64,000 nucleotides of DNA from a virus: the IMG/VR virus record IMGVR_UViG_3300012642_000011, positions 288,001-352,000 of that record, one strand, 5' to 3'. Below, in pieces: positions 9,402-64,000 of the stretch. The position numbers and the translations under genes are program-made. The stretch's first letter is position 1; each line of letters begins with the position of its first letter. The notes under the pieces are model-generated. The model did not search any database. It was not told where the DNA came from and saw only the letters and a program-made list of their open reading frames with translations.

Positions 9402-9465
9402 TTCAATTCTGTGCAGTGGGAATCAATCTATTGCCAGAGTAGCCCATATGCGTTCTGATTGCAAG

Positions 9466-18197: not shown

Positions 18198-18635
18198 TCA
18201 CGGGAGCACGATTCCCACGCCCTTGAACCCCACCTGATCCTTGATCTCATCAATGGCACCAATGACATCGAGAGCAAACTGGACATACAGATCAGACTCA
18301 TGATTCATGTACGTACCACGCCCCAAGAGGGTGACGAAGACGTAATCGGAATCACCGATCACGTACTCGGTGCTGTGAGAACTACCAGTACCGTAAGTAT
18401 CCACAAGTGCATACAGAATGGCATCCACAGTCTTATGCACAATGGAAGGGAAGTGAGCGTCGAAGTCAATGGGATTGTAATCACCACCGATGTTCTCCAT
18501 GCGATCCTTGATGAAGGACTCATCGAAAACAGCCTTCACAGTGTCCTTGTGCTTGATCAGGATCGAGGTGAAGTCGATCTTCTCGGTCTCGTAGAACCCG
18601 ATGGCCTTGCTGGTGTCAATAGTGTATCCGTACAT
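18198..18635 (-). CDS. hypothetical protein
   Basis: 145-aa ORF. Confidence 0.45.
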   Translation of the reverse strand: MYGYTIDTSKAIGFYETEKIDFTSILIKHKDTVKAVFDESFIKDRMENIGGDYNPIDFDAHFPSIVHKTVDAILYALVDTYGTGSSHSTEYVIGDSDYVFVTLLGRGTYMNHESDLYVQFALDVIGAIDEIKDQVGFKGVGIVLP

Positions 18636-18779
18636 GTTTTCTCCTTGAGAAATGTGCCTGATGGATTTTTGCTTCTACGAACACACTACAGGAGACAAGT
18701 GATCATGTCAACCTGTCTCCTGTAGTGCGTTACAGATCAGGGACGCTCCACCAACGTTTACAGGTGTTTTAATTCTGTG

Positions 18780-19000
18780 GATAACCCTGTGGATAAAATT
18801 GTGGATACTCAAGTACCCCCGAAGTGTCCATAAGTAAACCCTGTGGATACGCTTGTACGCAAGCGTTTTATCGAGCAGTTATCCACAGGTAGTGATCAGC
18901 ATGTGAGCAATAGTTATCCACAGCCTGTTGAGAACTGAAGAACACCTCGCAAACTCCTTGCATATCGCTGTGGATAACATACTTGTGGCGAGGATCGGGG
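18780..19000. promoter_or_regulatory. DnaA-box cluster (oriC-like or DnaA-titrating element)
   Basis: In about 215 bp of non-coding DNA, TGTGGATAA occurs three times and TTATCCACA twice as perfect matches to the 9-mer consensus. Three to four copies with one mismatch (TGTGGATAC twice, TGTCCATAA) occur in both orientations. A 10-bp-stem hairpin with an AT-rich loop follows at about 19030-19075. Confidence 0.6.
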
Positions 19001-19079
19001 ACACAAAATGATGTCATGCAAAAGTCGAGGGCAAGCACTCATATAAAAATCAATGGTGCTTGCCCTCGAACTCTCTTGA

Positions 19080-19253
19080 TCAGCGCGTCTCGATCAGCAG
19101 TGGGACGCTCCACTCCTGCTTGACATGGACAGGGGCGGGATCAGATGCTTCCACGTCTTCCATTCGCCCCCGAAGGATGCGCTGCGAATCTGCGCTCAGG
19201 GCCATCTTGTTGGGGTCGATCTTGACCAGACGGACGTTCTTGATGTTCTCCAT
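19080..19253 (-). CDS. small hypothetical protein
   Basis: Internal ATG with RBS GAGGAGA. Confidence 0.35.
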   Translation of the reverse strand: MENIKNVRLVKIDPNKMALSADSQRILRGRMEDVEASDPAPVHVKQEWSVPLLIETR

Positions 19254-29170: not shown

Positions 29171-29872
29171 TCACACAGCGGTCAGAAGGGACTGCACAAC
29201 GTCAGCGTTCGTGATCACGGGGGCAGGGGTGACAGGGAAGGGCTTCACCTTAGTCTTGGTGTGTGCCGACTGGTAGGCGAGGATCACCTGATTACGCAGC
29301 CGCCCAGTGTCAGCCACGGTGTACCCGTTGTCCTTGGCCCATGCGCGAATCTTGGCGGCGTTACGGTTCTTCCCCTTCTTGCTGGGCGACTTGATGAAGC
29401 GATCATCCTTGAAACCGTAAGCCTGAGCGTAGGCGATCAAGAGATCATTGGACAGGCGACCACGATCAGCGGTGGTGTAACCGTTCTCCTTGCCCCATTC
29501 ACGAATCAGAACGGAGTCAGGGACATGCTTGGTCTTGGTGGTCTTGACCTTCTCTTCCTTGGTGTTCAGGACATGGATGCGACCACCAGTGATGCTCTCG
29601 TCAACGGGGCAACCGTGAGCGACGTAGGACTCGACCACGGAGCGGTGCAGACGGCCACGGGTGCCGGTCTGGATACCCTGAGACTTGGCCCATGCCCGCA
29701 CCTGAACGGCGTTGTACGCGACGCCCTCCTTGTCTGCATACGTGGTGATCTGGGAGATCAGGTTGTGGAACTTGGCATCCACCTTCTCATCGGAAATGGA
29801 GTAGGTGGTGTTGTTGATGGTGATGTTCACGATGATCCTTTGTTCGTGTGCTCTGTTGTGTACTGATCCCAT
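29171..29872 (-). CDS. protein with three tandem Lsr2-type C-terminal DNA-binding domains
   Basis: Three repeats carry the RGR motif: VRAWAKSQGIQTGTRGRLHRSVVESYVA, IREWGKENGYTTADRGRLSNDLLIAYAQA and IRAWAKDNGYTVADTGRLRNQVILAYQSA. An alternative GTG start lies at about 29829. Confidence 0.6.
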   Translation of the reverse strand: MGSVHNRAHEQRIIVNITINNTTYSISDEKVDAKFHNLISQITTYADKEGVAYNAVQVRAWAKSQGIQTGTRGRLHRSVVESYVAHGCPVDESITGGRIHVLNTKEEKVKTTKTKHVPDSVLIREWGKENGYTTADRGRLSNDLLIAYAQAYGFKDDRFIKSPSKKGKNRNAAKIRAWAKDNGYTVADTGRLRNQVILAYQSAHTKTKVKPFPVTPAPVITNADVVQSLLTAV

Positions 29873-30970: not shown

Positions 30971-31683
30971 GATGCTTCCTTTCAAAGTGATCATTGTGAT
31001 CAGGATGTGTGTTCTTCTGTCTTGCTGGTATCCATGTTGCCACATTATTTCTTCCGTGTCAACTATGGATCTGCATTTTTCTCAAGGTTCCTTCTGCTTC
31101 TCTGTCGGCTTCCGTTGCCTTGATGAGTACATCATGGCACACCTTTAATCCCCGTGTCAACACTTTTGCCAAAATTTTCTCAAAAATCCTCTGACATGGG
31201 TGTTTACAAGAGAATCAGGGGGCTGAACAAAGGGACGCTCCACGAACTCACACCTGCTGCCTGTTGTAATAATTCTTATATAAGCCTTATATAAGCAAAA
31301 AGAAAGCATACAGGGACGCTCCACATACATAGCCTACAGGTCTGCAATCCTTCCTCTGCGACAAGAGAAGAGCGTTCAGAACACCTCTGCATGGGGACGC
31401 TCCACACATGCGGGATGAGGAGGTCACATCAGTGTGCTTGCTGGACACGCTGTACGCCGTTCTGAGGGCATGAAGGAGTGGCAAGCCATCAATGTTCGTA
31501 CCAGACCTAGAAACGCCCCACAGGGGCACACAGCCTCTCGTGGAAGGGCGTACAGCCGCCTAAGGTGACTTGTGAATCACTCCACGGTCATGGTTTCCCT
31601 GTAGGGACACAGAATGACGAAACATAGACAAAGCACCCTGTGTTCTCCCCGTCAAGAGAGCACAGGGTGCTTCAATGTGTCTA

Positions 31684-38276: not shown

Positions 38277-38409
38277 GGGGACACAGTTCTTAGTCGCCTA
38301 GAAGCAAGAAACCCTGTAAGCATTGCTTACAGGGTTTCTGTATTGATTAACTCGTGGTGGTGCTCACAAGGCTTAAAGAGATGGATGCTGGCGAGGATTT
38401 AGCACCCAC

Positions 38410-38489
38410 GTACCCCTAACGGGATTCGAACCCGTATGCCGAAGCGAGAGATTTTAAGTCTCCTGTGTATACCAATTCCACCATAGGGG
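38410..38489 (-). tRNA. tRNA-Leu (anticodon UAA) with an unusually short variable arm
   Basis: Minus-strand reading GCCCCTA-TGGTGGAATTGGTATACAC-AGGAGACTTAAAATCTCT-CGCTTCGGCATA-CGGGTTCGAATCCCGT-TAGGGGT-A. The D-arm is Leu-like (GGAATTGGTA). The anticodon loop CUUAAAA gives UAA. No CCA is encoded. Confidence 0.55.
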
Positions 38490-38757
38490 CAAAAGTGGGA
38501 TGTTGATCCTGCCTTGTACTTCGGCAGAACCAACAGCCCTTGCGGGTTGAGGGTAATGACTCCCCGTACCGCGATGAGCAAGATGGCCCATCAGCAACCT
38601 CCCGACCTTTCTCGGTAGTCCGCACTGTACATTGCTTTGAAAGAGCATGCACGGTCAGTGCCAACCGCCTCCCTGACGTGTGAGGAAACGCCTGCAAGGT
38701 CATTACTCCTTACAGGACATTGGTGAATCGTCATTATCGATTCCAACCAATGCTTTG

Positions 38758-38830
38758 TACTCCCAACGGGATTCGAACCCGTGTCGTCGCCGTGAAAGGG
38801 CGATGTCCTAGGCCACTAGACGATGGGAGC
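38758..38830 (-). tRNA. tRNA-Glu (anticodon UUC)
   Basis: Minus-strand GCTCCCATCGTCTAGTGGCCTAGGACATCGCCCTTTCACGGCGACGACACGGGTTCGAATCCCGTTGGGAGTA closely resembles bacterial tRNA-Glu. Confidence 0.7.
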
Positions 38831-39056
38831 GTGGCCCCTGACTGCACTATGAACCCCATGTGTTCTCACGGAATCCACCATGCATTCAGGAATACTATCA
38901 GGCAAGTCCCTACCTACCACATCGTCCTGATGACCTTTTTCAAGTCATAGCGGACAGGGAACTCTTTACCAAGTTGATGTTCGGCCCAAAATTCTTTTCA
39001 TTATTCTGTTGTTCTGATTCTAGTGTATCACACTCGGATCAGTTATGCAAGTCCAT

Positions 39057-39112
39057 TATAGTGTTGGTTGCCAGACGGCGGAACCCTTTGCCATCTGGCA
39101 ACCAACACTATA
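39057..39112. repeat. perfect 19-bp inverted repeat (hairpin) with an 18-nt loop
   Basis: tatagtgttggttgccaga - cggcggaaccctttgcca - tctggcaaccaacactata. Confidence 0.6.
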
Positions 39113-39178
39113 CCAGAAGGTTTGACTACCAGAGGGCAGTGCTTTGCTCAAAGCCCGTCTGGTGTCCTACCCTCCCAA

Positions 39179-39231
39179 GGTTTGATTACCATGCTGTACC
39201 CTGAGAATAATACCGCATGGTAATCAAAACT
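39179..39231. repeat. perfect 15-bp inverted repeat (hairpin) with a 20-nt loop, preceded by a direct repeat aaggtttgaYtacc
   Basis: gtttgattaccatgc - tgtaccctgagaataatacc - gcatggtaatcaaac. A direct repeat lies at about 39116-39130 and 39176-39190. Confidence 0.55.
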
Positions 39232-39232
39232 C

Positions 39233-39305
39233 GCTCCCCCACCTGGATTCGAACCAGGAACCTACGCATTAACAGTGCGGCGCTCTGCCGTTGAGCTATA
39301 GGGGA
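39233..39305 (-). tRNA. tRNA-Asn (anticodon GUU)
   Basis: Minus-strand TCCCCTATAGCTCAACGGCAGAGCGCCGCACTGTTAATGCGTAGGTTCCTGGTTCGAATCCAGGTGGGGGAG. The anticodon loop CUGUUAA is as in bacterial tRNA-Asn. Confidence 0.7.
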
Positions 39306-39309
39306 ATGT

Positions 39310-39460
39310 CTGGCTTATACAGTCATTTAACTCACTTGCCCCCGAGTGAGCACCAGAAAATCTCTGTTCAGTTACCAATCTCCAACTTCTTATATGAACT
39401 ACGGCGATGCTAAAGACAACGCCGTTTCTGGCTTCACAGGAATATGCTTAATCAGACCTT
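39310..39460 (-). ncRNA. putative TnpB guide (omega or right-end RNA) region
   Basis: By analogy with characterised TnpB systems, the guide RNA is transcribed from the 3' end of tnpB into the right end. This region holds two hairpins. No direct sequence evidence of expression exists. Confidence 0.25.
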
Positions 39461-40753
39461 ATACAGATCATTCTTAAGTCTAACAATCCCTCCACCAGCA
39501 CAACCCTCCGTTCCAGAGGTGACCAAACTCAAGTACCTTTCACCAAGAATAACCATATTCCTCGCAGCATGAGAATCACGATCCTCACTAAAACCACAAG
39601 AAGAACACAAGAAAACACTCATATTAACATCATGCTTCGTCAAGACACCACAAGGAGAACACCACGCAGTAGTAGCCACCCACTTAGGCAGCATTACCGC
39701 ATTCTCATGATTTTTCAAGCGCGCTTTAACACGACCAAGCACACCATGATGGATCTTCTTAGAACCACGTGCTTTCGAATTCTTGTTCTTCCACGATACT
39801 AACATTTCATCTTGGAAGAACACTACACTATCCTTAGTTAACCTGCTTACTAATTGATTAGCAAACTCATTCTTCAAATGATCAGTATTCTGATACTCTC
39901 TCTTGATCTTAGCCAAAGTCTTGCGATAACTGTTGGAGTTCTTTACCTGACGAGACAGTTTTCTCTGCAATCTCGCCATCCTCTCCTGTTTGCCAGTAAT
40001 AATCGCGTTAACAACCTCACCATTATCAAGAGTTAAAGCATTCTTTACACCCATGTCCACACCGATTTTATTCGTAGGTGCAACCTTAACTGCTCGTGGC
40101 TGATAAGTGGTCACTACTAAATGATAACCATCAGCACGATACACTAATTTAGCATTCGCAAACTCAAGACTATCAGCACACAATTGCTCATAACCGCGAA
40201 CACGTAATCTGCCGGGAATGTTCTGAACACGGATTTTAGTCATCATCCCTTTTGAATTAGGAATCAGATCATAAGTCACGCCATATTGTTTGAGATTGAT
40301 AGAATCGACATTGCGAACAAACTTTAGTTTTCCAATCTTGCGACCATTCTTCTTCAATGCAGATAATGATTTGCGATCATTGCTCAATTGAGTTATCACG
40401 CTTTGCTGCATTTGGCTTCCAAGATGTTTGATTGCTCTTTTCTCAGTATCTCCGTTGGGGACTTTTACCTCAACTTCACCTTTGAGTTCTTTGATGTAGT
40501 CAAGATCAAAACGTTCTGCTGCAAGGGCAGCATTGCGAATCCATTTAGCCTCATGGAAAATACTTTTAATAGCCTCTTTTTGCTGTTTATTCATGGAAGA
40601 TTGTACGATTTTTAGGTCATACACTTTGACAATCATGGTTTTTCTGCGTTCACGAGTTGCTTTTCCTGCTTCTTTGATTCTCTTGTTTTTGGCAAGTCTG
40701 GCTTCTTCTGTGAGGGTTTTTGGTGCGCTTGTGCGTTGTGCCATGATTGTCAC
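39452..40753 (-). CDS. tnpB: TnpB (OrfB), RuvC-like RNA-guided endonuclease of the IS200/IS605 family
   Basis: A 433-aa protein. RuvC-I reads IGVDMGVKN. The C-terminal zinc finger is CSPCG...CSSCG, followed by an RuvC-III-like DRDSHAARNM. Confidence 0.8.
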   Translation of the reverse strand: MTIMAQRTSAPKTLTEEARLAKNKRIKEAGKATRERRKTMIVKVYDLKIVQSSMNKQQKEAIKSIFHEAKWIRNAALAAERFDLDYIKELKGEVEVKVPNGDTEKRAIKHLGSQMQQSVITQLSNDRKSLSALKKNGRKIGKLKFVRNVDSINLKQYGVTYDLIPNSKGMMTKIRVQNIPGRLRVRGYEQLCADSLEFANAKLVYRADGYHLVVTTYQPRAVKVAPTNKIGVDMGVKNALTLDNGEVVNAIITGKQERMARLQRKLSRQVKNSNSYRKTLAKIKREYQNTDHLKNEFANQLVSRLTKDSVVFFQDEMLVSWKNKNSKARGSKKIHHGVLGRVKARLKNHENAVMLPKWVATTAWCSPCGVLTKHDVNMSVFLCSSCGFSEDRDSHAARNMVILGERYLSLVTSGTEGCAGGGIVRLKNDLYKV

Positions 40754-40805
40754 CTCCTTGATATAATAGGCTATCTTATCTTATTATATCAAAAGGTTGG
40801 TTGTG

Positions 40806-41305: not shown

Positions 41306-42085
41306 TTAAGAGATCTCTTCGAGATGGATCAATGGTCTTGAATATCCCTCTACCTTGTGATCCATATCAACACTGATAACCCTGAACTTTGTTCCTCTGG
41401 CAAGGGTAACCTCTTCCTCATAAGATCCATCCTCATTCCACTTCGCTGATTGAGTAGTATCAATCTTCATCAGAACACCAGAGATATAATCAGGAGCATT
41501 CATACCAGAGAACTCATGAGATATGTCTTCAGATGTAGAAGTAGACACGAACTCATTGAAGACAACCTCGTTACCAGCCTCCCCGATATGCTTCTTCACC
41601 CATTCTACAGGATTCATGTCAGTCTTGCGAGGAAGATCGGAATTTGCTGTCTTCACCCCACGAAAAAGAGTATGATTTGATTTTCTACGAGGGCACCTCG
41701 CCAACGCTTTATCCATGTTATCAATCACTTTTCTTTGATCATCAGATAAACTGCCCACATCATCACGTCTCAAAGCATCATTGATCTCACCATGCTCAAA
41801 GGAACCATACGATTCCCAAGCATCCCTCTCATCATCAGAAAGAGAATTTCTCCATGTTGATACAAGAGAAGAATGATTTGTAGAAGACAAGGACGACACA
41901 GAAGAGAATGATCTCTCCAAAACTTCCTCAGAAAAAGAATGTGCCTCCTTCATGTTCTCAAAATGCTGTACTGAACCCAAGGGGCATTCAATCTTATCTG
42001 CCCTGCATCTGTTCATCTCGCCAGTTTTGCTGCTCACGTGATACTTGACCATTATCCCTCCCCATGTTTTCAGATGAACACACAT
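41306..42085 (-). CDS. mono-ADP-ribosyltransferase of the R-S-E class (C3, Alt or Mod-like toxin fold)
   Basis: Arg motif HTLFRGV, STS motif VSTSTS and ExE motif EEEVTLARG appear in the canonical order and spacing. Confidence 0.55.
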   Translation of the reverse strand: MCVHLKTWGGIMVKYHVSSKTGEMNRCRADKIECPLGSVQHFENMKEAHSFSEEVLERSFSSVSSLSSTNHSSLVSTWRNSLSDDERDAWESYGSFEHGEINDALRRDDVGSLSDDQRKVIDNMDKALARCPRRKSNHTLFRGVKTANSDLPRKTDMNPVEWVKKHIGEAGNEVVFNEFVSTSTSEDISHEFSGMNAPDYISGVLMKIDTTQSAKWNEDGSYEEEVTLARGTKFRVISVDMDHKVEGYSRPLIHLEEIS

Positions 42086-42278: not shown

Positions 42279-45200
42279 TCAGACCTGACATGACTCACAG
42301 TAAGAGTTTGCATCCTCAACCTCTGTTCCTGCAAGTGTGGAAGGACGTACACGGACGTAGTAAATCGTCTTGATACCCTTCCTCCATGCATAAATGTATG
42401 CCTTATTGAGATCTCTGGTTGTGGCCTCATCAGTCACAAAGAGAGTCAAAGAAGCACCCTGATCAATGTGAGGTGTAGCAGCAGCATACACATCAATGAT
42501 GGCTTCAGTTCCTACCTTGTATGCATCAGCGTAGTAAGGCAGAGTTTCCTCACTCAAGTATGGCTGTGGGTAGAAGACTCTACCAATCTTTCCTTCCTTC
42601 CTTGCCTCAATGTTCTGAGCAACAGGATGGATAGAAGAAGTAGAATAAGAAATGTAACTGATGCTTCCTGTTGGCGCAACAGCGATCAGGTACGCATTAT
42701 ATAGACCATCTCTCATCACATCTTCCTTCAACTGCTTCCAGTCTTCAGCAGTAGGCACATGCATACTTGTCTTCTTCAGAAGTTCTTTGACCTTCTCAGT
42801 CTTGACTTCTGAGTACTGACCGTTTGTGTACATGTCGAAGAACTCACCTGTAGCATACTTTGACTTCTCAAACTCGAAGAATGTCTTTCCCTTCTCCTTT
42901 GCCATCTTGTTGGATGCCTTCATAGCGTAGTAACGTACTGACATGAAGTACAAGTTGGTGAAGTCTACTGCTTCCTCAGATGCGTAATAGATGTGCTCAC
43001 GTGCAAAGAATCCGTGAAGGTTCATTGCACCCAGACCAATAGCATGACTCAACTGGTTTCCACGCTCAATGGATGGAGCAGATGAGATGTTGGACAGTTC
43101 TGACACTACTGTGAGCGCACGTACTGCTGTTTCCACTGACTGACCAAAATCAGGTGAATCAAACATGTTGGCAACATTGAGAGAGGCGAGGTTACAGGAG
43201 ATGTCTCTTCCAACGTGGTCATAGTTTCCATCTTCATTAAATGTTGACGGAGTTGAGACCTGAAGAATTTCAGAACAGTTTCCTGTGACAATGCCATTGA
43301 AGATAATGGAGTGACCATCTTCTACAGTGACATCATATACATCCTCTACACCGTCAGGAACAATGTCTCTGACAACAGCCTTGTAGCGGTGTGTGCTGTA
43401 TGGTGTTCTGTTCTTATCCCATACCAATGACTTTTCCTGCCATGCTTTCTGCTGCCTGTCTGTCCAGTTCAGAAGTTCATAGAGAGCAACGACTTCAGCC
43501 TGTGCAGATGCCTTCAGATTCCACACTTCTGCTACATCATACTCCTTCTCTCCGCCCTTGCTATCAGGAAGGGTATCCTTACCTGCCTTGCGGGAGAGGT
43601 ACAGCCTAGTGAACACGTTCATGTTCAATAGCATCCTCTGAACTTCAAGGAGAAGTTCCCTATTTGTGGAAGTCAGTTCAATGGTTGCAGACTTTGATGT
43701 TCCTGTAATGCAACCATCTGCCTGATAGAGACCCGAAAGGTAGCCAACCTGTGTTGACCTGTCTCCTCTGAGTACGAAGTCAGGGACAATCTCCTTATTA
43801 TCCTTAGTGAAATCATTGTTTTTAAGGATTTCCGCAAGGATTGTAGAAGAAAGCGTCCATTTATTGTACTTCTCGCTTTCAGTGAAAGTAGGAATACGTG
43901 TGGACTCATCAACGAGACCAATGGCATCATCACTGTAGAAGATGTTCTCCACGATCTTATTGATCTTGCTGATCTCTGACTTATTCTTTGGCTTGATTGT
44001 CAGTCTTGCAGATGGTGAGTACTTAGAGTCCTTGTCCTCTACAAGAGAACCCTCACCTGCAATGAATCCTGCAATGAATGCAAGATCAGGCTTGTGAACG
44101 TGTCCGTATGCACCCTCTGATGGTTGAATGAGAACTTTGTCACCTGGCTTGACCTCACCCAAGGGGATCTTCACAAGGATAGGATCATCATTCTCGTCCT
44201 TACGCTCCACGTAGATCTTATGGTACTCTGTTGCTCTTAACTCATACCCCTCAATAGTGGACATTTTGAACACAGGAGTATTCTCTGCTGTCTTGAACAT
44301 CTTGGTTGATGTAACACTGGCTACTCCGTCTGCATCAAGATCCATAGTACGTGCTCTCTCATCAACGATGACGTTGAAGGAATTTTGTGATTCAAAGAGG
44401 TCTCCTGCACGGACGTTTCCTGAATCTGTAAGCAACTGTGTCTCTGCTGTGACGCAGAGGTTGGAATGTGTAACCTTTCCATCCAACTGTGACTGCGCGT
44501 TTACGTTGTCCTCAAACATGAGGTAGGGGTATCCTGACTCAAACTGTAGCTCAGCAATGGTCTGGAAGAGTGAACGTGCTTTAATCTTTTGCTTACGGAT
44601 CTTGGGGTTATCTACCATATCGTAGTACTCTTCCGTGATATCGATGTCACTGAAAGGCTTACCGTAGAATTTCTCAACATCATAAGGTGAGAACAGATAC
44701 ATGTCATCATTGCGCTTAGCAAGTTCAAAAGTGATGTCAGGAATGACAATACCAATGGAAAGTGTCTTAATCCTGATCTTCTCATCTGCGTTCTCACGCT
44801 TAGTGTCAAGGAATCTCATGATGTCAGGGTGGTGTGCGTTCAAGTACACTGCACCTGCTCCCTGACGTGCTCCCAACTGGTTAGCATAGGAGAATGAATC
44901 CTCAAGAAGTTTCATGACAGGAATGATTCCAGAGGACTGTCCCTCAATGTTCTTAATAGGAGCACCCTGCTCACGAACGTTGGTGAGGTTCAAAGCAACA
45001 CCGCCACCACGCTTAGACAACTGCAAAGCGTTGGTAATGTTTCTTGCAATGGATTCAAGGTTGTCTTCTGTTCTCAAGAGGAAGCAGTTGTGAGCAATGT
45101 ACCCTCTTGCTACATAGGTATGATTGTTCTCTACTTCAAGATTGTAAACAGTAGTAGTTTTTTCTTCGAATGAAGATGCCTTTACTTTATACATTACGTA

Positions 45201-46859
45201 TCCATCAATGATCCTTGCAAATCTAAACTGATCAGAGGCAAGTACACCATCAAATCTATCTGCATTTTTATCAATGTATTTAATGAAGTCAACATTGTTT
45301 TCGCTGATAGCAGGAATCTTCAAGGTGGATGTAGGTGACCCTGAAGCACTGAAGAAGGTTCTCTCATACGGAAGAAGTCCAATCCTCAAAGCAGCAGTTC
45401 TTAATTGAGAAATAATCTCAGGGTTGGACAAAGAGACTTCTGCGCTTCTGTCAAGGACTGTTCCATCCCCTCTGAAGCATCCTACAAGCATACCTTTGAG
45501 GAATTCATCAGAAGCATCAAGTAGAAGAGTGTTCAACCTCTTCTTATTAAATCCAGTTCCGATAAGGGAAACAAAGAATTCTCCCATAATTTGAGACCAA
45601 GCAGCCACATTCGTTGAGCCATCTACGTTTTCTCTCACAGTAGGCGTAAAGCCGAAGATTCTTTCAATCAGATTGACGGTATCCTTGATAAAGATATCTT
45701 CTTTTGATCCGAAAGTGAATCGAATTCCCTTATTTACCCCATTCGTGTAATGAGCATATCCCTCAGAAATGTAGTATCCTACAAGTCGTCCGAAATCTTC
45801 GTTCACAGAGATGGTGTTTTTCAAAGAATATGAGTTCTTTAAAACATTAGACCCCTTCTTTTTATTGTTTTTCTTGTCGATTGATCCAATGTAAACAAGA
45901 TCGTTTTCTACATCAACATCAAGAGTCCTACCCCATGTAGATGGCGTTTTAACGTAATCTGAAATCTTCAGTTCTGAAACAGATTCGGAACTTCTTCTTG
46001 GAACAGACAGAGCAATGAAATCACCAGGAAGAACTTCTCCCGCTGCAATCCACTTTACATTCTCAGTACTTCCATCACCATCAATTAAGGTGTCTTGAGA
46101 TGAGTTTTTTCTGTAAACAAGGACAGGGTGCTCTTTAGTAGAAGAGAACTTTTCTTTTTGTCCAATAACAGTAAGAGAAACTATTCCGTCACTTTCCTCA
46201 CGAGACATAACTCCTGTTACCTTTTGCACGCTGCCATCGTGTGTGTAAACTGAATCCCCCTCAACAATGTTGGAGATTGTAATTTCACCATGGGGTGTAG
46301 AAATTGGTGTATCGCCTTCGAAACACGACACCATCTCACCACGCTGCTTCTTTCCTGCATTCAAGAAGGTTGGAGTGGCAGGCTGGAAACGTCCGCCCAT
46401 CATCTCATCAAGCAAGTGCTCTGCAGCATCCTCGTCACCATCAGCAAGGTAAAGAGCAACAACGACAACCCTATCCTCATAGCGTTCAAGATATCTCTTG
46501 CCGTCGAATGTCTTCAGAGTATAGGATGTGTAGTACTTGAATGCTCCCATGAAGGATGGGAAACGGAACTTGTAAGCGTATGCCTTCTTGTAAAGTGACT
46601 TCACGAAATCGAAGTCATACTTGTCGAAGAGTTCCTTCTCGTAGTAGTCATTCTTGAAGAGGTAATCCAGTTTCTCTTCAAGATCGTGGAAGAACACTGT
46701 GTTCTCATTGACATGGTGGAGGAAGAATGCTCTGGCTGCCTCTTTGTCCTTATGCAACTGAAGTTTTCCATCTTCACCCATCAGTTTCACCTGGGCGTTC
46801 AACTCATGGTAATCCACGTTCTCTTCTTTGTCGTGGGTTGTTCCATTGAATTCAGACAT
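42279..46859 (-). CDS. nrdE: class Ib ribonucleotide reductase large subunit NrdE, interrupted by two inteins (1526-aa precursor, about 720-aa extein)
   Basis: The extein carries RNR blocks (TPTFLNAG...RGEMVS|CFLL, ...HSNL|CSEILQV and a C-terminal YCESCQV). The N-terminus is NrdE-like, without an ATP cone. Confidence 0.85.
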   Translation of the reverse strand: MSEFNGTTHDKEENVDYHELNAQVKLMGEDGKLQLHKDKEAARAFFLHHVNENTVFFHDLEEKLDYLFKNDYYEKELFDKYDFDFVKSLYKKAYAYKFRFPSFMGAFKYYTSYTLKTFDGKRYLERYEDRVVVVALYLADGDEDAAEHLLDEMMGGRFQPATPTFLNAGKKQRGEMVSCFEGDTPISTPHGEITISNIVEGDSVYTHDGSVQKVTGVMSREESDGIVSLTVIGQKEKFSSTKEHPVLVYRKNSSQDTLIDGDGSTENVKWIAAGEVLPGDFIALSVPRRSSESVSELKISDYVKTPSTWGRTLDVDVENDLVYIGSIDKKNNKKKGSNVLKNSYSLKNTISVNEDFGRLVGYYISEGYAHYTNGVNKGIRFTFGSKEDIFIKDTVNLIERIFGFTPTVRENVDGSTNVAAWSQIMGEFFVSLIGTGFNKKRLNTLLLDASDEFLKGMLVGCFRGDGTVLDRSAEVSLSNPEIISQLRTAALRIGLLPYERTFFSASGSPTSTLKIPAISENNVDFIKYIDKNADRFDGVLASDQFRFARIIDGYVMYKVKASSFEEKTTTVYNLEVENNHTYVARGYIAHNCFLLRTEDNLESIARNITNALQLSKRGGGVALNLTNVREQGAPIKNIEGQSSGIIPVMKLLEDSFSYANQLGARQGAGAVYLNAHHPDIMRFLDTKRENADEKIRIKTLSIGIVIPDITFELAKRNDDMYLFSPYDVEKFYGKPFSDIDITEEYYDMVDNPKIRKQKIKARSLFQTIAELQFESGYPYLMFEDNVNAQSQLDGKVTHSNLCVTAETQLLTDSGNVRAGDLFESQNSFNVIVDERARTMDLDADGVASVTSTKMFKTAENTPVFKMSTIEGYELRATEYHKIYVERKDENDDPILVKIPLGEVKPGDKVLIQPSEGAYGHVHKPDLAFIAGFIAGEGSLVEDKDSKYSPSARLTIKPKNKSEISKINKIVENIFYSDDAIGLVDESTRIPTFTESEKYNKWTLSSTILAEILKNNDFTKDNKEIVPDFVLRGDRSTQVGYLSGLYQADGCITGTSKSATIELTSTNRELLLEVQRMLLNMNVFTRLYLSRKAGKDTLPDSKGGEKEYDVAEVWNLKASAQAEVVALYELLNWTDRQQKAWQEKSLVWDKNRTPYSTHRYKAVVRDIVPDGVEDVYDVTVEDGHSIIFNGIVTGNCSEILQVSTPSTFNEDGNYDHVGRDISCNLASLNVANMFDSPDFGQSVETAVRALTVVSELSNISSAPSIERGNQLSHAIGLGAMNLHGFFAREHIYYASEEAVDFTNLYFMSVRYYAMKASNKMAKEKGKTFFEFEKSKYATGEFFDMYTNGQYSEVKTEKVKELLKKTSMHVPTAEDWKQLKEDVMRDGLYNAYLIAVAPTGSISYISYSTSSIHPVAQNIEARKEGKIGRVFYPQPYLSEETLPYYADAYKVGTEAIIDVYAAATPHIDQGASLTLFVTDEATTRDLNKAYIYAWRKGIKTIYYVRVRPSTLAGTEVEDANSYCESCQV
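43278..44456 (-). mobile_element. intein 2 in NrdE (about 393 aa, LAGLIDADG type)
   Basis: Inserted between THSNL and CSEILQ. It starts CVTAETQLL and ends IVTGN, with the unusual penultimate Gly. The blocks are LAFIAGFIAGEGSL and VGYLSGLYQADGC. Confidence 0.55.
45087..46325 (-). mobile_element. intein 1 in NrdE (about 413 aa, LAGLIDADG homing-endonuclease type)
   Basis: Inserted between RGEMVS and CFLL. It starts CFEGDTPIS and ends YIAHN. The LAGLIDADG-like blocks are GRLVGYYISEGYA and LKGMLVGCFRGDG. Confidence 0.6.
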
Positions 46860-47169
46860 ACTTGTCCTCCTTGTGTCGTGTTTTAAAGTCTATGGGCATT
46901 GGTAATCAATGCTTGGGGTAAAAAATGACCCACGAAAACAGCACTTACGTAGGTCACACATGAGCATCATCGACATGATGCCGTACTTTTTCTTTTTATT
47001 TTGTTGTCGGAGTATATTCTAACAAGAGTAGTTTAAAAATATTCCTCTCATAACTTCCTATATCACCATTACCTGTTAAGCAACCATTGATTTCATGCTG
47101 TTCTTCCATCATGGATAATTTCGATGTGAGATAATACACATGAATTTTCTCTCAACGAACAATTAAAAT

Positions 47170-48903
47170 TCAGGGTCTGTCTTGATGAAAAGGAAACGTA
47201 AAACGTATCTTACCACAATCATAAACTCTCTGAATCCCATTGATATGAGCCAACTGTGATTCAGTTAAAGATTCATCATAAAAAAGCGAAGGATCATTCT
47301 TAAACCTCTTCTTCCTGAAACCGAACTTATGCTTCCTCTCATTCCTGAAGATGTAGTAATAATCAGGAGGCAATATCTTATCCTGAATCCATCCTGTTTT
47401 CTCATACAAACCACCATCAGAAAAAGATAAATCAGCAAACGTCGTTAGCATAGAATTCGGATGCTCTTTCATGAATGCTTTGACTATTTTAGAATGACCA
47501 CCAATGACATGTTCAGACGTAGAATACCTCTCCAATATGTAACCATTCTTTGCCTTCTTGAAGGATGCAATTGCTACAAGAACGCCTGATCCCTTGTCTT
47601 TCAGACCCCAATGTTCAGAAGCACTCACTGATCCTTGAATGTGATTACTCTCATGGAATGCTGATGCTTCCCACCTGTCCACTATGCTGACATTCGTATT
47701 CCTTGCATAAATTCTTCTCTGATTATTAATTCCCATCACATGCTGAACATGCTTCTTGACAATCTCTTTCTTATTATTCCAATCATCCTCCCACACAGTT
47801 AACAATCTGATCCCTTGATCATGGCATGCCCAATATTTTTCAGAGTGCTTTTTCTTCCCCGAGAATTTTTCCTGATGCCAATAAATACCATTAAATTCAA
47901 TGGCTACATTGATCTCTGGAAGATAGATGTCAAGTTCCTTTCCGTTGAGAACTTTCCTATCATTAGTGATGATTCTGCCATCATAGACATCCATAATGAA
48001 TTCAATGAATTCCTTCTCCCGCTTAGATGTCCCTGCTTCATCACATTTACGACACCCTTCCTTGCCAGCAAAGTGAGCATCAAAGGACTGATAGAATGTG
48101 CCATGATCATCTATTGTGCAGATGATAGGAGAAGATGTTTTAACATTGAAGGAACTCAAGTCAACCTTGGAGTAATCATACCTGCCAGATCCATGAGATT
48201 GTATCTTGTTGTCAAACTTGGCAGTATCATATGGGGCATATTTATTACATTTTCTACAGCCGTTGTTTCCTCTTAAGTGAGAGTTGGCTTCAATCCTATA
48301 GGATTCACGGTGCTCATTACAGATGACAGTGATTTTCTCATGAAGGTTCTTGAATTGCATCACTTTGGAGTAATCAAATCGATCTCCATGTTTCTCTTTT
48401 GCTCTTGTGACATATTCTTGTACAGAGATCACACTTTGCCCATTGCATTCAGAGCAACCGTTCATTCCTCGTAAATGATTTTGAGCATTCTGGGTGAACT
48501 CGCCATGTTCTCTGCAAAGAACAGTGATCTGGTCAGCCATTTTGGTAAATCTCGTCTGGGAGTAATCAAATTTATCCCCATGGATTTCTTTTGCCTTTTG
48601 AATATACTCTTCAGGAGACATTCTTCTTGTTGCCATAGCGCATTCTTTGCACCCTGTACCACCTTTGCTTCCCAAATGTGTGTTAGGGTAAGTAGAGAAT
48701 TCACCATGATCAGGACAGATGATGATCACTTTTTCTTTGAGTTTAGTGTACTGCGTTGGAGAGTAGTCAAACCTGTCCCCATGAATACTTTTTGCTCTTT
48801 GAATGAAGTCCTCTGTATTCCTGATTCTCATTCTATAATGTCTCCTTGAGCAAAAGTAAGATCCTGTGAACATGAGTTGACCATGTTCACAGGATCTTAC
48901 CAA
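47170..48903 (-). CDS. freestanding homing-endonuclease-like protein with N-terminal tandem zinc-ribbon repeats and a C-terminal Vsr or DUF559-like PD-(D/E)XK nuclease domain
   Basis: At least four repeats of about 60 aa have the form IHGDRFDYS...C.EHGEF...HL.G..GC..C. The C-terminus ELDIYLPEINVAIEFNGIYWH resembles Vsr or DUF559. The gene sits between nrdF and nrdE. Confidence 0.5.
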   Translation of the reverse strand: MVRSCEHGQLMFTGSYFCSRRHYRMRIRNTEDFIQRAKSIHGDRFDYSPTQYTKLKEKVIIICPDHGEFSTYPNTHLGSKGGTGCKECAMATRRMSPEEYIQKAKEIHGDKFDYSQTRFTKMADQITVLCREHGEFTQNAQNHLRGMNGCSECNGQSVISVQEYVTRAKEKHGDRFDYSKVMQFKNLHEKITVICNEHRESYRIEANSHLRGNNGCRKCNKYAPYDTAKFDNKIQSHGSGRYDYSKVDLSSFNVKTSSPIICTIDDHGTFYQSFDAHFAGKEGCRKCDEAGTSKREKEFIEFIMDVYDGRIITNDRKVLNGKELDIYLPEINVAIEFNGIYWHQEKFSGKKKHSEKYWACHDQGIRLLTVWEDDWNNKKEIVKKHVQHVMGINNQRRIYARNTNVSIVDRWEASAFHESNHIQGSVSASEHWGLKDKGSGVLVAIASFKKAKNGYILERYSTSEHVIGGHSKIVKAFMKEHPNSMLTTFADLSFSDGGLYEKTGWIQDKILPPDYYYIFRNERKHKFGFRKKRFKNDPSLFYDESLTESQLAHINGIQRVYDCGKIRFTFPFHQDRP

Positions 48904-48913
48904 TTTCTATCAA

Positions 48914-49888
<975 letters not shown>

Positions 49889-61674: not shown

Positions 61675-62838
61675 TCAGAGCGCGACAATACACACAGTGA
61701 AGATCTCTTCAATGTCATTTCCATCATTGTCTACACAGACAACCTGCATGACCTTTGATTGCTCCACCCACTTGATTTTCATGTTGGCGGTAGTGACAGG
61801 CAACATAGCCTTTCTCACAGCATCTCTGAGAACAGTGATCTCAATGTCTTCTTCAATCTCTGAATCAATGAGGTCAATATTAATGCTGTTATTGTCATCA
61901 ATGTCACTCATGCTCATCTTAGAATTCTTGATGACAACCTTTAGATTCTTGGTGTTAGAATCCAAAGAAAGGTTGGAAATAGCGTTCAATGCTTTCTCAA
62001 AATCCTTCTTGCTGAATGTAGCAGACTGATTCGTTTTTTCAGCAGCCGCCTTCATCTGTTCGGAAGGCTTCATCATAACTTCATCAGAGTTGGTTGAGAA
62101 AAGGACGATTCTACCGTCACCGAAGGAATAACCGAATCCCATATTGGTAGATGTAATCAATGCAACAGGAGACCCTACTGTCTTAGTGGAGTTGGCGATA
62201 GTAGCCTTGGAAGCAGGAAGAGCATATGTCAACTGCTGTTTTTTCTTTCCACCTGCTGTCTTTGCTGGCACGAAGGGAACTCTGACTTCACTGAATGCGA
62301 ACTTGTCTGTCGCAATAGCAATAACCTGTTCAGATCCTGTTTTCTCCATATCGAAAACAAACCCAACAGAGTTGACAAGTGTCAGCGTACTGGATGGATC
62401 GGAAATCTTGGACACTCTTGAAATGATTTCAAAGAACTCTGCTTCATCAACTTCACCAATAGTGATAATCTCTGGCTCTGATGGTGAGACTTGATCCAGA
62501 AGAGGAATATGGAACTTGTTTCCCCCTTGCGTTTTCACAAGAAGTTGGCTCTTCTGCTCTTCGATCTGCATTTCACCAGGAAAATCCTTGATGACTTTGG
62601 CAAGGTTCTTCACAAACTTGGCGTCCATGAGAATTTTTGTTTCCTCAAAATCACCATTGAAGTTGCTGATGTCAAGATTATCCTTTGCATATTGTGTACC
62701 ATCAAAGAAGTACACATGCGCTGAATCCTCTGAATCCAATGCCAAAATGACGGGATGTGTTTCCTTTAACGCTGCTCCCTGTGTAACCCAAGAAATTGCA
62801 TTGGAAAAATCTTCGGAATTTATTTTAAACTTCATCAA
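61675..62838 (-). CDS. dnaN: DnaN-like DNA polymerase III beta sliding clamp
   Basis: The N-terminus MKFKINSEDFSNAISWVTQGAALKETHPVILALDSED is diagnostic of beta clamps, and the length of 387 aa fits. Confidence 0.65.
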   Translation of the reverse strand: MMKFKINSEDFSNAISWVTQGAALKETHPVILALDSEDSAHVYFFDGTQYAKDNLDISNFNGDFEETKILMDAKFVKNLAKVIKDFPGEMQIEEQKSQLLVKTQGGNKFHIPLLDQVSPSEPEIITIGEVDEAEFFEIISRVSKISDPSSTLTLVNSVGFVFDMEKTGSEQVIAIATDKFAFSEVRVPFVPAKTAGGKKKQQLTYALPASKATIANSTKTVGSPVALITSTNMGFGYSFGDGRIVLFSTNSDEVMMKPSEQMKAAAEKTNQSATFSKKDFEKALNAISNLSLDSNTKNLKVVIKNSKMSMSDIDDNNSINIDLIDSEIEEDIEITVLRDAVRKAMLPVTTANMKIKWVEQSKVMQVVCVDNDGNDIEEIFTVCIVAL

Positions 62839-62931: not shown

Positions 62932-64000
62932 TCAATTGACCATCTTGAGAACAATCTCCTTCTGCGTTCCCACAGCAAGTTTCTCCCCAGCAGGAATTGA
63001 CTGTTCACCGATCACACCGGATGGGAGACCATTCTGAGAAGCAATCTTCTCCTTGCTTACATTGGACTTGACGCCAGTTGACCTCAACGTATCCAATGCC
63101 TGCTCAGGAGACATACCCACTACGGAAGGAACTGTAAAGAAATCCTTTCGCTCAACAGGGACATTGACACGATCAGTGCTGGTGTTGTTGAAGTCAAGAG
63201 GAACAGGTGTAGTTCCCTTGAGTACATCCTTCATCACAGATGATCCAGCAATCACAGCAGTGCTTGTACCTGCACGGCCACCACGGAACCAGAAGTTTCC
63301 ATTCACACCACGAGTCATCTTATCCATGTCAGTGATGTTGATGAAGAGAGAATAATTCTTGGAAACCTGACCCCATGTGTAGTTGTAGTTCTGGTTAGTA
63401 CCAGACTTTCCTACAGCATCATAACCGGGAACGTTACCCATCAAACCGAAGGCATTGTCAACATGACCAGGTACAGTGTTTGCTCGCATAGCACGAAGAA
63501 CAGTGGACGCTGTTCTAGGACTCATAGCCGCACGGCAACTAGTGTCTTCAGGGTTATAACTCTCAGGAACAACGGGTGAAGTTCCATCAGAGTATTCATA
63601 ACTCTTCACTGATGTAGGAGGACAGTACACACCTTCATTAGCGAAGGCGGCATAGGCAGCAGCCATATCAATAGTAGAGTTTCCTGTAGCACCAAGGACA
63701 TAGGACATTGACCTGTTAGTGACGTTCTCAGGAGTATGCAGACCGAGTGAATCTGTCATTTTAAAGACAGGCTCAAGACCAACAAACTCTCCATTGGGAT
63801 AAGCAATCTTCTCAGCAAGGGCAGTGAACCATGTGTTTGATGAGTAAGCAGTAGCCTGCTCAAAGTTCAAATTCTGTGACTGAAGTTTGCTACAACCAAG
63901 GCTGTTACTGAATCCGCCACTAGGCTCATCGAAGTCACTGAAATAAAGAGGACATGGTGTGGAGAATTCCAACTGCTGTGGAGACATGCCATTTTCAAGA
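62932..64000 (-). CDS. class A penicillin-binding protein, C-terminal transpeptidase domain plus PASTA domain (N-terminus lies beyond the window)
   Basis: LGATGNSTIDMAAAYAAFANEGVY is a class A PBP block. The KTG motif appears as KSGT. The C-terminal FTVPSVVGMSPEQALDTLRSTGVKSNV is PASTA. The ORF is open at the window edge. Confidence 0.65.
   Translation of the reverse strand, partial: LENGMSPQQLEFSTPCPLYFSDFDEPSGGFSNSLGCSKLQSQNLNFEQATAYSSNTWFTALAEKIAYPNGEFVGLEPVFKMTDSLGLHTPENVTNRSMSYVLGATGNSTIDMAAAYAAFANEGVYCPPTSVKSYEYSDGTSPVVPESYNPEDTSCRAAMSPRTASTVLRAMRANTVPGHVDNAFGLMGNVPGYDAVGKSGTNQNYNYTWGQVSKNYSLFINITDMDKMTRGVNGNFWFRGGRAGTSTAVIAGSSVMKDVLKGTTPVPLDFNNTSTDRVNVPVERKDFFTVPSVVGMSPEQALDTLRSTGVKSNVSKEKIASQNGLPSGVIGEQSIPAGEKLAVGTQKEIVLKMVN

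Follow-up and report, generated by a model that had tools for sequence, protein, structure and literature searches.

A 64,000-nucleotide stretch of viral DNA (the window), corresponding to positions 288,001 to 352,000 of IMG/VR record IMGVR_UViG_3300012642_000011, contains a compact cluster of seven predicted binding boxes for DnaA, the universal bacterial initiator. We tentatively favor the reading that this locus is a phage-borne, high-affinity platform that captures host DnaA and is not an origin of replication, although we place this below an even chance. The reading is based on the identity and density of the boxes, their transcriptional insulation, the constraint on the locus, the missing hallmarks of an origin, and precedents in other phages. 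The broader proposition that host DnaA binds the boxes is likely, because it is common to this reading and to those in which the boxes help an origin or control transcription. We regard the cluster as a new and unusually clean case of phage-borne DnaA-box clusters, which are loosely known.

The DnaA-box cluster and its spacer

High-affinity boxes were sought in the whole window as the 9-mer TTATCCACA (TTWTNCACA), which is the type present at R1 and R4 of Escherichia coli. Perfect boxes occur on the plus strand as TGTGGATAA at 18776, 18788, and 18969, and as TTATCCACA at 18879 and 18914, which is exactly the count of three plus two given in the original prediction. That prediction also listed three to four boxes with one mismatch; the rescan found only two. 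Both read TGTGGATAC on the plus strand (18800 and 18842; GTATCCACA on the minus strand), and they depart from the consensus only by T1>G. The five perfect and two one-mismatch boxes together span 202 bp (18776-18977). Sites with two mismatches, at 18825 and 18926, occur at the density expected by chance, and the spacer holds no surplus of weak boxes of the kind used for ATP-dependent oligomerization. There are no perfect boxes elsewhere in the window or in the 10 kb to its left. Base composition predicts 0.44 perfect boxes per 64 kb, and the Poisson probability of finding at least five in a given 202 bp is ~1e-16.

All seven boxes fit the pattern KTATCCACA, and four carry the exact 11-mer GTTATCCACAG. 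This 11-mer is also found at R1 and R4 of E. coli oriC, in an oriC sequence that matches E. coli chromosomes at 100%. These matches give good support to the earlier identification of the sites as DnaA boxes. The third position is A rather than G in all seven boxes, despite surroundings of 52% GC.

Genes in this part of the window are transcribed from the minus strand, and the boxes are numbered in that direction. Box 1 (18969-18977, minus strand) is perfect, reads TTATCCACA on that strand, and carries the 11-mer, as do boxes 2 (18914-18922) and 3 (18879-18887), both perfect and on the plus strand. The remaining four are on the minus strand: box 4 (18842-18850) and box 5 (18800-18808) each have the one mismatch, and box 6 (18788-18796) and box 7 (18776-18784) are perfect, with the 11-mer again present in box 7. 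Relative to transcription, the orientations are thus forward, reverse, reverse, and then forward four times. Boxes 5, 6, and 7 are the successive units of a head-to-tail triple with a 12-bp period, leaving 3 bp between boxes. Boxes 1 and 2 together form a 12-bp inverted repeat, and oppositely oriented boxes are separated by 35-55 bp.

According to gene calls on metagenomic contigs, the cluster lies in a 444-bp non-coding spacer between two minus-strand genes encoding proteins of 57 and 145 amino acids (aa). This is the longest spacer in the surrounding 20 kb, and the gene context around it is of early type. On the minus strand, the order is the 57-aa gene, a hairpin, a short motif termed A, the boxes, a second motif termed B, a palindrome containing a candidate promoter, an AAGGAG ribosome-binding site, and the start codon of the 145-aa gene. 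The original prediction placed the hairpin after the boxes. Because the genes run on the minus strand, it in fact precedes them and follows the stop codon of the 57-aa gene. The hairpin (19019-19069, minus strand) has the AT-rich loop that was described, 17 nt in length, but its stem is a perfect 14 bp instead of 10 bp (arms 19025-19038 and 19056-19069). Its predicted RNA fold has an energy of -34.5 kcal/mol (z = -8.0), and it is followed by CTTTTG on the minus strand. It is terminator-like, and is presumably the terminator of the 57-aa gene.

The palindrome on the other side (18680-18731) has 21-nt arms that are 90% complementary around a 10-nt center, and folds with -37.7 kcal/mol (z = -7.2). 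Promoter-like signals can be read within it on the minus strand, namely TTGACA (18711-18706), a 17-nt spacer, and TAGTGT (18688-18683). The -10 element matches at only three of six positions, and this promoter is absent from the list produced by a promoter scan. The 14-bp and 21-bp palindromes flank the cluster at a distance of 45-48 bp on each side. Because the terminator hairpin lies upstream, and the promoter and palindrome lie downstream, the boxes should occupy a stretch of ~290 bp that is largely free of transcription.

Motifs A and B had been described as flanking the cluster. Both are real, with GGGGACAC (motif A) at 18997-19004 and GGGACGCTCCA (motif B; TGGAGCGTCCC on the minus strand) at 18740-18750, each on the plus strand. 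However, they are intergenic motifs that recur throughout the genome and are not specific to this locus. The distance from motif A to the next promoter is usually 30-90 bp in this part of the genome, whereas here ~250 bp separate motif A from motif B. Because of this widened gap, the box cluster looks like an insertion into a standard terminator-promoter cassette.

Conservation could be assessed only among relatives of 92-99% identity, because no distant relatives of the locus or of the 145-aa protein were found. The sole usefully diverged relative, contig L010, is 92.7% identical over 8.2 kb. Its longest run of identity with the window, 357 bp (19085-18729), corresponds exactly to the terminator, the boxes, and motif B. 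The spacer as a whole is identical at 442 of 444 positions, whereas the flanking genes are 92-94% identical and other spacers mostly 75-94%. All seven boxes are intact in every variant that was fetched. The few substitutions in closer relatives fall between boxes or preserve a G-U pair in the terminator, as with a C>T change in the hairpin stem of contig L011. The near-identity of the whole spacer between diverged flanks argues for purifying selection on the element in its entirety.

The original prediction likened the cluster to a chromosomal oriC. It does share with oriC its tandem consensus boxes at 3-bp spacing, and its boxes are at least as dense as those of many oriCs. However, the hallmarks of a self-sufficient oriC-type origin are missing, so by its sequence the cluster does not look like one. 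Of the checks that had been suggested, neither an AT-rich unwinding element in the spacer nor, within the 64-kb window, a GC-skew switch at the cluster was found. Near the boxes, the maximum AT content in any 30-bp window is 67%. Nearest-neighbor stability within the spacer reaches its minimum at the box array itself or at the 17-nt hairpin loop, and at least eight places elsewhere in the 39-kb block of 52% GC are less stable. Across the 64-kb window, there is no GC-skew extremum at 18.9 kb, and neither gene direction nor the polarity of motifs A and B switches at the cluster.

The BUS rule calls for (NAN)x3 DnaA-trios at a distance of 0-16 bp from a box, on its correct side (PMC8287927). A permissive form of this rule was satisfied at two of the seven boxes, compared with 1.9 expected by chance, and the trios are not TAG-like. 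The spacer has no iterons; the boxes are its only repeat families longer than 12 nt. No adjacent initiator (rep) or other replication gene, including dnaA or dnaN, was recognized, although both neighbors are ORFans and one could encode a novel initiator. The spacer also has no enrichment of GATC sites of the SeqA type (six observed versus ~4.7 expected) and no match to the IHF consensus WATCAANNNNTTR, though the host's own nucleoid proteins may differ. A search with Rfam for non-coding RNAs gave only spurious microRNA-hairpin matches below threshold.

Precedents for the proposed capture of DnaA by phage DNA

In the injection-stop (iss) region of T5-like phages, ~8 DnaA boxes, in pairs 3 bp apart, lie within inverted repeats in untranslated first-step-transfer DNA (10.1101/866236). 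Davison judged these boxes to be unrelated to replication and put forward the hypothesis that membrane-bound DnaA holds the entering DNA (10.1101/866236). We confirmed the boxes in the T5 sequence NC_005859, where three perfect and three one-mismatch boxes occur in 11 kb, in two groups 3 kb apart, with pairs at 9437/9449 and 9498/9510. Like the cluster described here, the T5 array, which belongs to a virulent phage, occupies a non-coding stretch among small early genes, comprises ~7-8 boxes with neighbors 3 bp apart, and lies in or is flanked by inverted repeats or palindromes. In both cases, no replication genes adjoin the array, which is conserved while neighboring genes diverge. However, the T5 boxes are mostly degenerate, whereas five perfect and two near-perfect boxes fall within 202 bp in the present case. 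The T5 array is also part of a terminal repeat, whereas the present cluster is seen only in a gene context of early type. The locus has no sequence homology to T5 or other Tequintavirus phages, and has no blastn match at all, among the 50,697 phage records of INPHARED.

Other phages carry similar arrays. Scanning IMG/VR for pairs of boxes separated by 3 bp yielded at least 120 contigs. Among the matches listed, at least 15 contigs have 5-9 perfect boxes per 250 bp, and several of the contigs with arrays are bona fide phages. The arrays are located between portal or minor-capsid genes and scaffold genes, or upstream of a terminase operon next to GP88; another, in contig L115, is next to a gene for a VapE-like primase-helicase. 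The exact triple box is absent from IMG/VR. The direct terminal repeat of Shigella phage A7, a T7-like Berlinvirus (NC_048180.1), consists largely of DnaA-type boxes, with four perfect and four one-mismatch boxes, all in one orientation, as aGTTATCCACAg units at 11-12-bp spacing (L155 1-190 and L156 1383-1559). E. coli phage P483 has an array similar to that of A7. A literature search found no paper mentioning the DnaA-type boxes of the A7 terminal repeat. The A7 and IMG/VR arrays resemble the present one in the aGTTATCCACAg unit, the 11-12-bp tandem spacing, the non-coding location, and their presence in bona fide phages. They differ from it in that they reside at genome ends, upstream of terminase, or in head-gene modules, and mostly have a single orientation. 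Thus, DnaA-box arrays are recurrent in phages, and are often located at or near genome ends or in early DNA.

Clusters of DnaA boxes outside origins are also present in bacterial chromosomes, as with E. coli datA, the Bacillus subtilis DnaA-box clusters (DBCs), and Streptomyces D78. These have in common with the present locus intergenic, high-affinity boxes away from an origin, at which DnaA is expected to bind regardless of its nucleotide state. However, the present cluster is borne by a phage rather than by the chromosome to be regulated, and the IHF consensus site of datA is lacking in the spacer. In DARS elements, boxes I and II are closely apposed and oppositely oriented, and are accompanied by a box III. 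By comparison with this layout, the opposed boxes of the present cluster are farther apart, at 35-55 bp.

If the locus is a capture platform, ~7 DnaA molecules would load onto the boxes soon after the early-type DNA enters the cell. Loading would presumably be cooperative on the triple array and yield a stable nucleoprotein complex. This complex might hold or pause the phage DNA at membrane-associated DnaA or, alternatively, sequester the initiator as phage copies build up. It would not be expected to melt DNA by itself.

Several observations weigh against this interpretation. An actinobacterial host, if it prefers the box TTGTCCACA, could bind these sites with lower affinity. Seven sites per infecting genome would be too few to titrate DnaA before the phage DNA is amplified, judging from E. 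coli numbers: the E. coli chromosome has several hundred DnaA boxes, and thus a role as a DnaA sink is quantitatively weak for a single infecting genome. The anchoring model for T5, which we use as a precedent, is itself hypothetical. Full conservation of the DNA between boxes is what a precisely assembled complex would show, but an origin would account for it equally well, and it may also reflect a recent recombination tract. Finally, the phage has genes for a DnaB-type helicase, a clamp, and RecA, but none for an initiator was recognized in 74 kb, so the phage may need host DnaA for initiation; and at least one IMG/VR box cluster, that of L115, adjoins the gene for a VapE-like primase-helicase.

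Alternative interpretations

The last of these observations also favor a close rival, in which the cluster is a replication origin or a helper of one, and box-bound host DnaA recruits or loads the phage DnaB-type helicase. We consider this somewhat unlikely. Opening of the DNA would then come from extrusion of the flanking palindromes, one of which has the 17-nt AT-rich loop, or from transcription that starts at the adjacent promoter, and not from a classical unwinding element. DnaA boxes assist the origins of phage P1 (oriR) and of plasmids pSC101, F, and RK2. As in these mobile replicons, of which P1 also has tandem boxes, the boxes here would be bound by the host's DnaA. However, iterons and an adjacent rep gene are lacking. 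The tandem 12-bp array does resemble the oriC box pairs of BUS (PMC8287927), and the 357 bp that are invariant relative to L010 include the DNA between boxes as well as the two palindromes. Against an origin are the missing unwinding element, the chance level of DnaA-trios, the absence of an adjoining replication gene, and the lack of any switch in skew, gene direction, or polar motifs. Moreover, another non-coding region of the window (31046-31683) looks more origin-like. Should the locus nevertheless be an origin, this uncultured giant-phage lineage would gain its first candidate origin, which would represent DnaA-dependent initiation without a classical unwinding element.

A second alternative, which we judge improbable, is that the sites are not DnaA sites in vivo. 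In that case, KTATCCACAG would be bound by a phage protein, or only poorly by host DnaA, and the likeness to DnaA boxes would be convergent. Many actinobacteria prefer the DnaA box TTGTCCACA, and an actinobacterial host is possible on the basis of several genes of the element, described below. The element also uses other private repeated motifs on a large scale, and T7 itself has a different short repeat at the terminal-repeat position where A7 has its DnaA-type boxes. However, five of the seven sites are the exact universal 9-mer and four are the 11-mer of E. coli R1 and R4. The presence of A instead of G at position 3 throughout, within DNA of 52% GC, likewise counts against this reading. 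In addition, viral contigs of 33-66% GC that are unrelated to one another share the aGTTATCCACAgg unit, as would be expected of a target for a universal host protein more than of targets for many private phage proteins.

A third alternative, about as improbable, is that the cluster serves DnaA-dependent transcriptional control or insulation. DnaA would activate or repress the promoter of the 145-aa gene, or would act as a roadblock that reinforces the upstream terminator and ties the downstream early genes to the DnaA status of the host. DnaA does regulate transcription at box clusters, including those at the dnaA promoter, B. subtilis sda and yydA, and lambda pR. Here, motif B follows the end of the triple array after 26 bp and the TTGACA in the palindrome follows it after ~65 bp, and the local copy of motif B could need an activator because its flanking -35 and -10 positions are poor. 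Still, seven boxes over 202 bp, extending to ~300 bp upstream, far exceed what the control of a promoter would require, the best promoter candidate is enclosed in a palindrome of its own, apparently a separate operator, and none of the other ~30 promoters in the block has boxes.

Returning to the capture platform, we note a generalization that is more speculative than the reading of this single locus: phages may widely share a class of cis-elements, dense arrays of consensus DnaA boxes, that capture the host initiator on incoming DNA and do not fire replication. The roles of such a class would be to anchor or pause DNA during entry, to protect ends, or to shut off host initiation. If this is correct, the present locus is the densest and cleanest example, and occurs in a lineage without cultured relatives. 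To our knowledge, how virulent phages deal with DnaA is largely unknown. If they routinely carry landing pads for DnaA on early DNA, this would provide a handle on the 60-year-old puzzle of two-step transfer in T5, and would mean that part of host takeover is encoded in DNA and not in protein. It would also call for caution with phage "origins" assigned by Ori-Finder-type methods from counts of DnaA boxes alone. Because like arrays are present in the cultured E. coli and Shigella phages T5, A7, and P483, the question is experimentally accessible.

The carrier element, its neighboring genes and its repeated motifs

Several metagenomes contain contigs, the largest of 332 kb, that match the window, and the carrier looks like a giant phage of ~330 kb that is known from metagenomes only. 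No phage structural genes were seen in the 94 kb examined, and no related cultured phage or IMG/VR contig was found. The left 39 kb of the window, together with at least 10 kb further left, has 52% GC and is densely packed with small ORFan genes. This block also encodes an RNA ligase, a GmrSD/HNH protein, a HAD protein, a metallophosphatase, and a protein with three Lsr2 domains. The right 25 kb has 41% GC and encodes NrdE with inteins, a homing endonuclease, NrdF, a RecG-like helicase, a ClpB-like ATPase, an Alt-like ADP-ribosyltransferase, and a homolog of processivity factors; DnaB and RecA are encoded just past the end of the window.

The replication genes are thus remote from the boxes, at a distance of at least 35 kb in the window and of 216 kb, in inverted arrangement, in another assembly. 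The dnaN-like gene that the original prediction placed ~43 kb away is located at 61675-62835 and matches the PHROG processivity factor with E = 5.6e-11; more than 48 kb separate the boxes from the DnaB-like gene. The statement that no dnaA gene lies next to the cluster also holds, since both neighbors are ORFans without a Pfam or PHROG match or a remote homolog. A tblastn search for DnaA domain IV, with E. coli and B. subtilis queries, gave no match in the 74 kb formed by the window and its flanks. Therefore, any DnaA at the boxes would be that of the host or would be encoded in the remaining ~250 kb of the 332-kb contig.

NrdF is 68% identical to proteins of Gordonia, Mycobacterium, and Arthrobacter phages, and this similarity, the Lsr2 domains, and a penicillin-binding protein (PBP) with PASTA domains hint weakly at Actinomycetota. 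Comparison of TnpB and the phage PBP with one genome per GTDB species gave either nothing or matches of only 29% identity, and RecA and DnaB carry no signal of host lineage.

The upstream 57-aa ORFan gene (19080-19253, minus strand) is called in nine metagenomic contigs, and a copy of motif B (19102-19112) lies within the coding sequence at its 3' end. The downstream 145-aa ORFan gene (18198-18635, minus strand) is the one preceded by AAGGAG. Homologs of the 145-aa protein among 5.8 billion proteins are all at least 90% identical to it. No remote homolog was found among 1.84 billion representatives, and there was no tblastn match in phages or in IMG/VR. An AlphaFold2 model of this protein had a pLDDT of 52; it was unusable and was set aside. 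One metagenomic contig (L004; ENA ERZ1031066 NODE_15) ends within the palindrome upstream of this gene, with its position 1 at approximately window position 18692. This end is 57 bp upstream of the 145-aa gene and stops short of the boxes; it may be an assembly break at a repeat, and is not evidence for a genome end.

Motif A (roughly aGGGGACACa[ga]a) occurs 32 times in the window, between 94 and 38284, and 11 more times in the 10 kb to the left (L153 1-9800). All are on the plus strand, and they are distributed throughout the 52% GC block. The motif always lies between a terminator hairpin and the next promoter, in minus-strand and plus-strand gene blocks alike. Because it stays on the same strand in both, its orientation is tied to the DNA strand and not to transcription, which points to a connection with replication, packaging, DNA entry, or site-specific nicking.

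Motif B has 34 copies with no more than one mismatch, all on the plus strand between 5320 and 37449, compared with 0.9 expected. Approximately ten copies share a context of ~30 nt that corresponds to a sigma70-like promoter on the minus strand, TTGACA-N-TGGAGCGTCCC-N6-TAGAGT. The remaining copies lie in coding sequence or upstream of plus-strand promoters. The motif-B promoter pattern is absent from IMG/VR. A search of JGI metagenomes for a box combined with motif B returned 17 matches, which were rejected as chance matches without similarity to the window.

The 638-bp non-coding spacer at 31046-31683 contains three copies of motif B exactly 81 bp apart (31232, 31313, and 31394), as well as two direct repeats of cttatataag, a terminator, and a near match to motif A. 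It holds the least stable and most AT-rich DNA of the 39-kb block. From these features, it looks more like an origin or a regulatory hub than does the DnaA-box spacer.

The change from 52% to 41% GC is abrupt, at approximately 38400-40800 of the window, and occurs within one element. The boundary holds genes for tRNA-Leu, tRNA-Glu, and tRNA-Asn (38410-39305) and a TnpB/IS605 OrfB gene (39452-40753). In contig k141_11150, of 332 kb, a distance of 216 kb separates the two GC blocks, and their arrangement is inverted with respect to the window; this indicates an inversion or an assembly difference with a breakpoint at the GC boundary. GATC is over-represented 2.4-fold in the 52% GC block (368 observed versus 152 expected) and 1.5-fold in the 41% block.

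The class Ib ribonucleotide reductase operon (42279-49888) is heavily invaded. NrdE, at 1526 aa, has two intein-like insertions, one with a Hint_2 domain at residues 179-221 and one with an intein and a LAGLIDADG domain at 813-1193. A 577-aa HNH homing endonuclease is encoded between nrdE and nrdF. The protein with three Lsr2 domains (29171-29872, minus strand), which has no match in the 50,697 phage records, and the Alt-like ADP-ribosyltransferase (41306-42085, minus strand) are candidate host-takeover factors. The PBP is a class A protein of 829 aa (62932-64000, continuing at L132 7415-9904) with transglycosylase, transpeptidase, and PASTA domains. Its gene lies directly upstream of that for the clamp homolog; it is unusual cargo for a phage, and its nearest bacterial matches are 29% identical.

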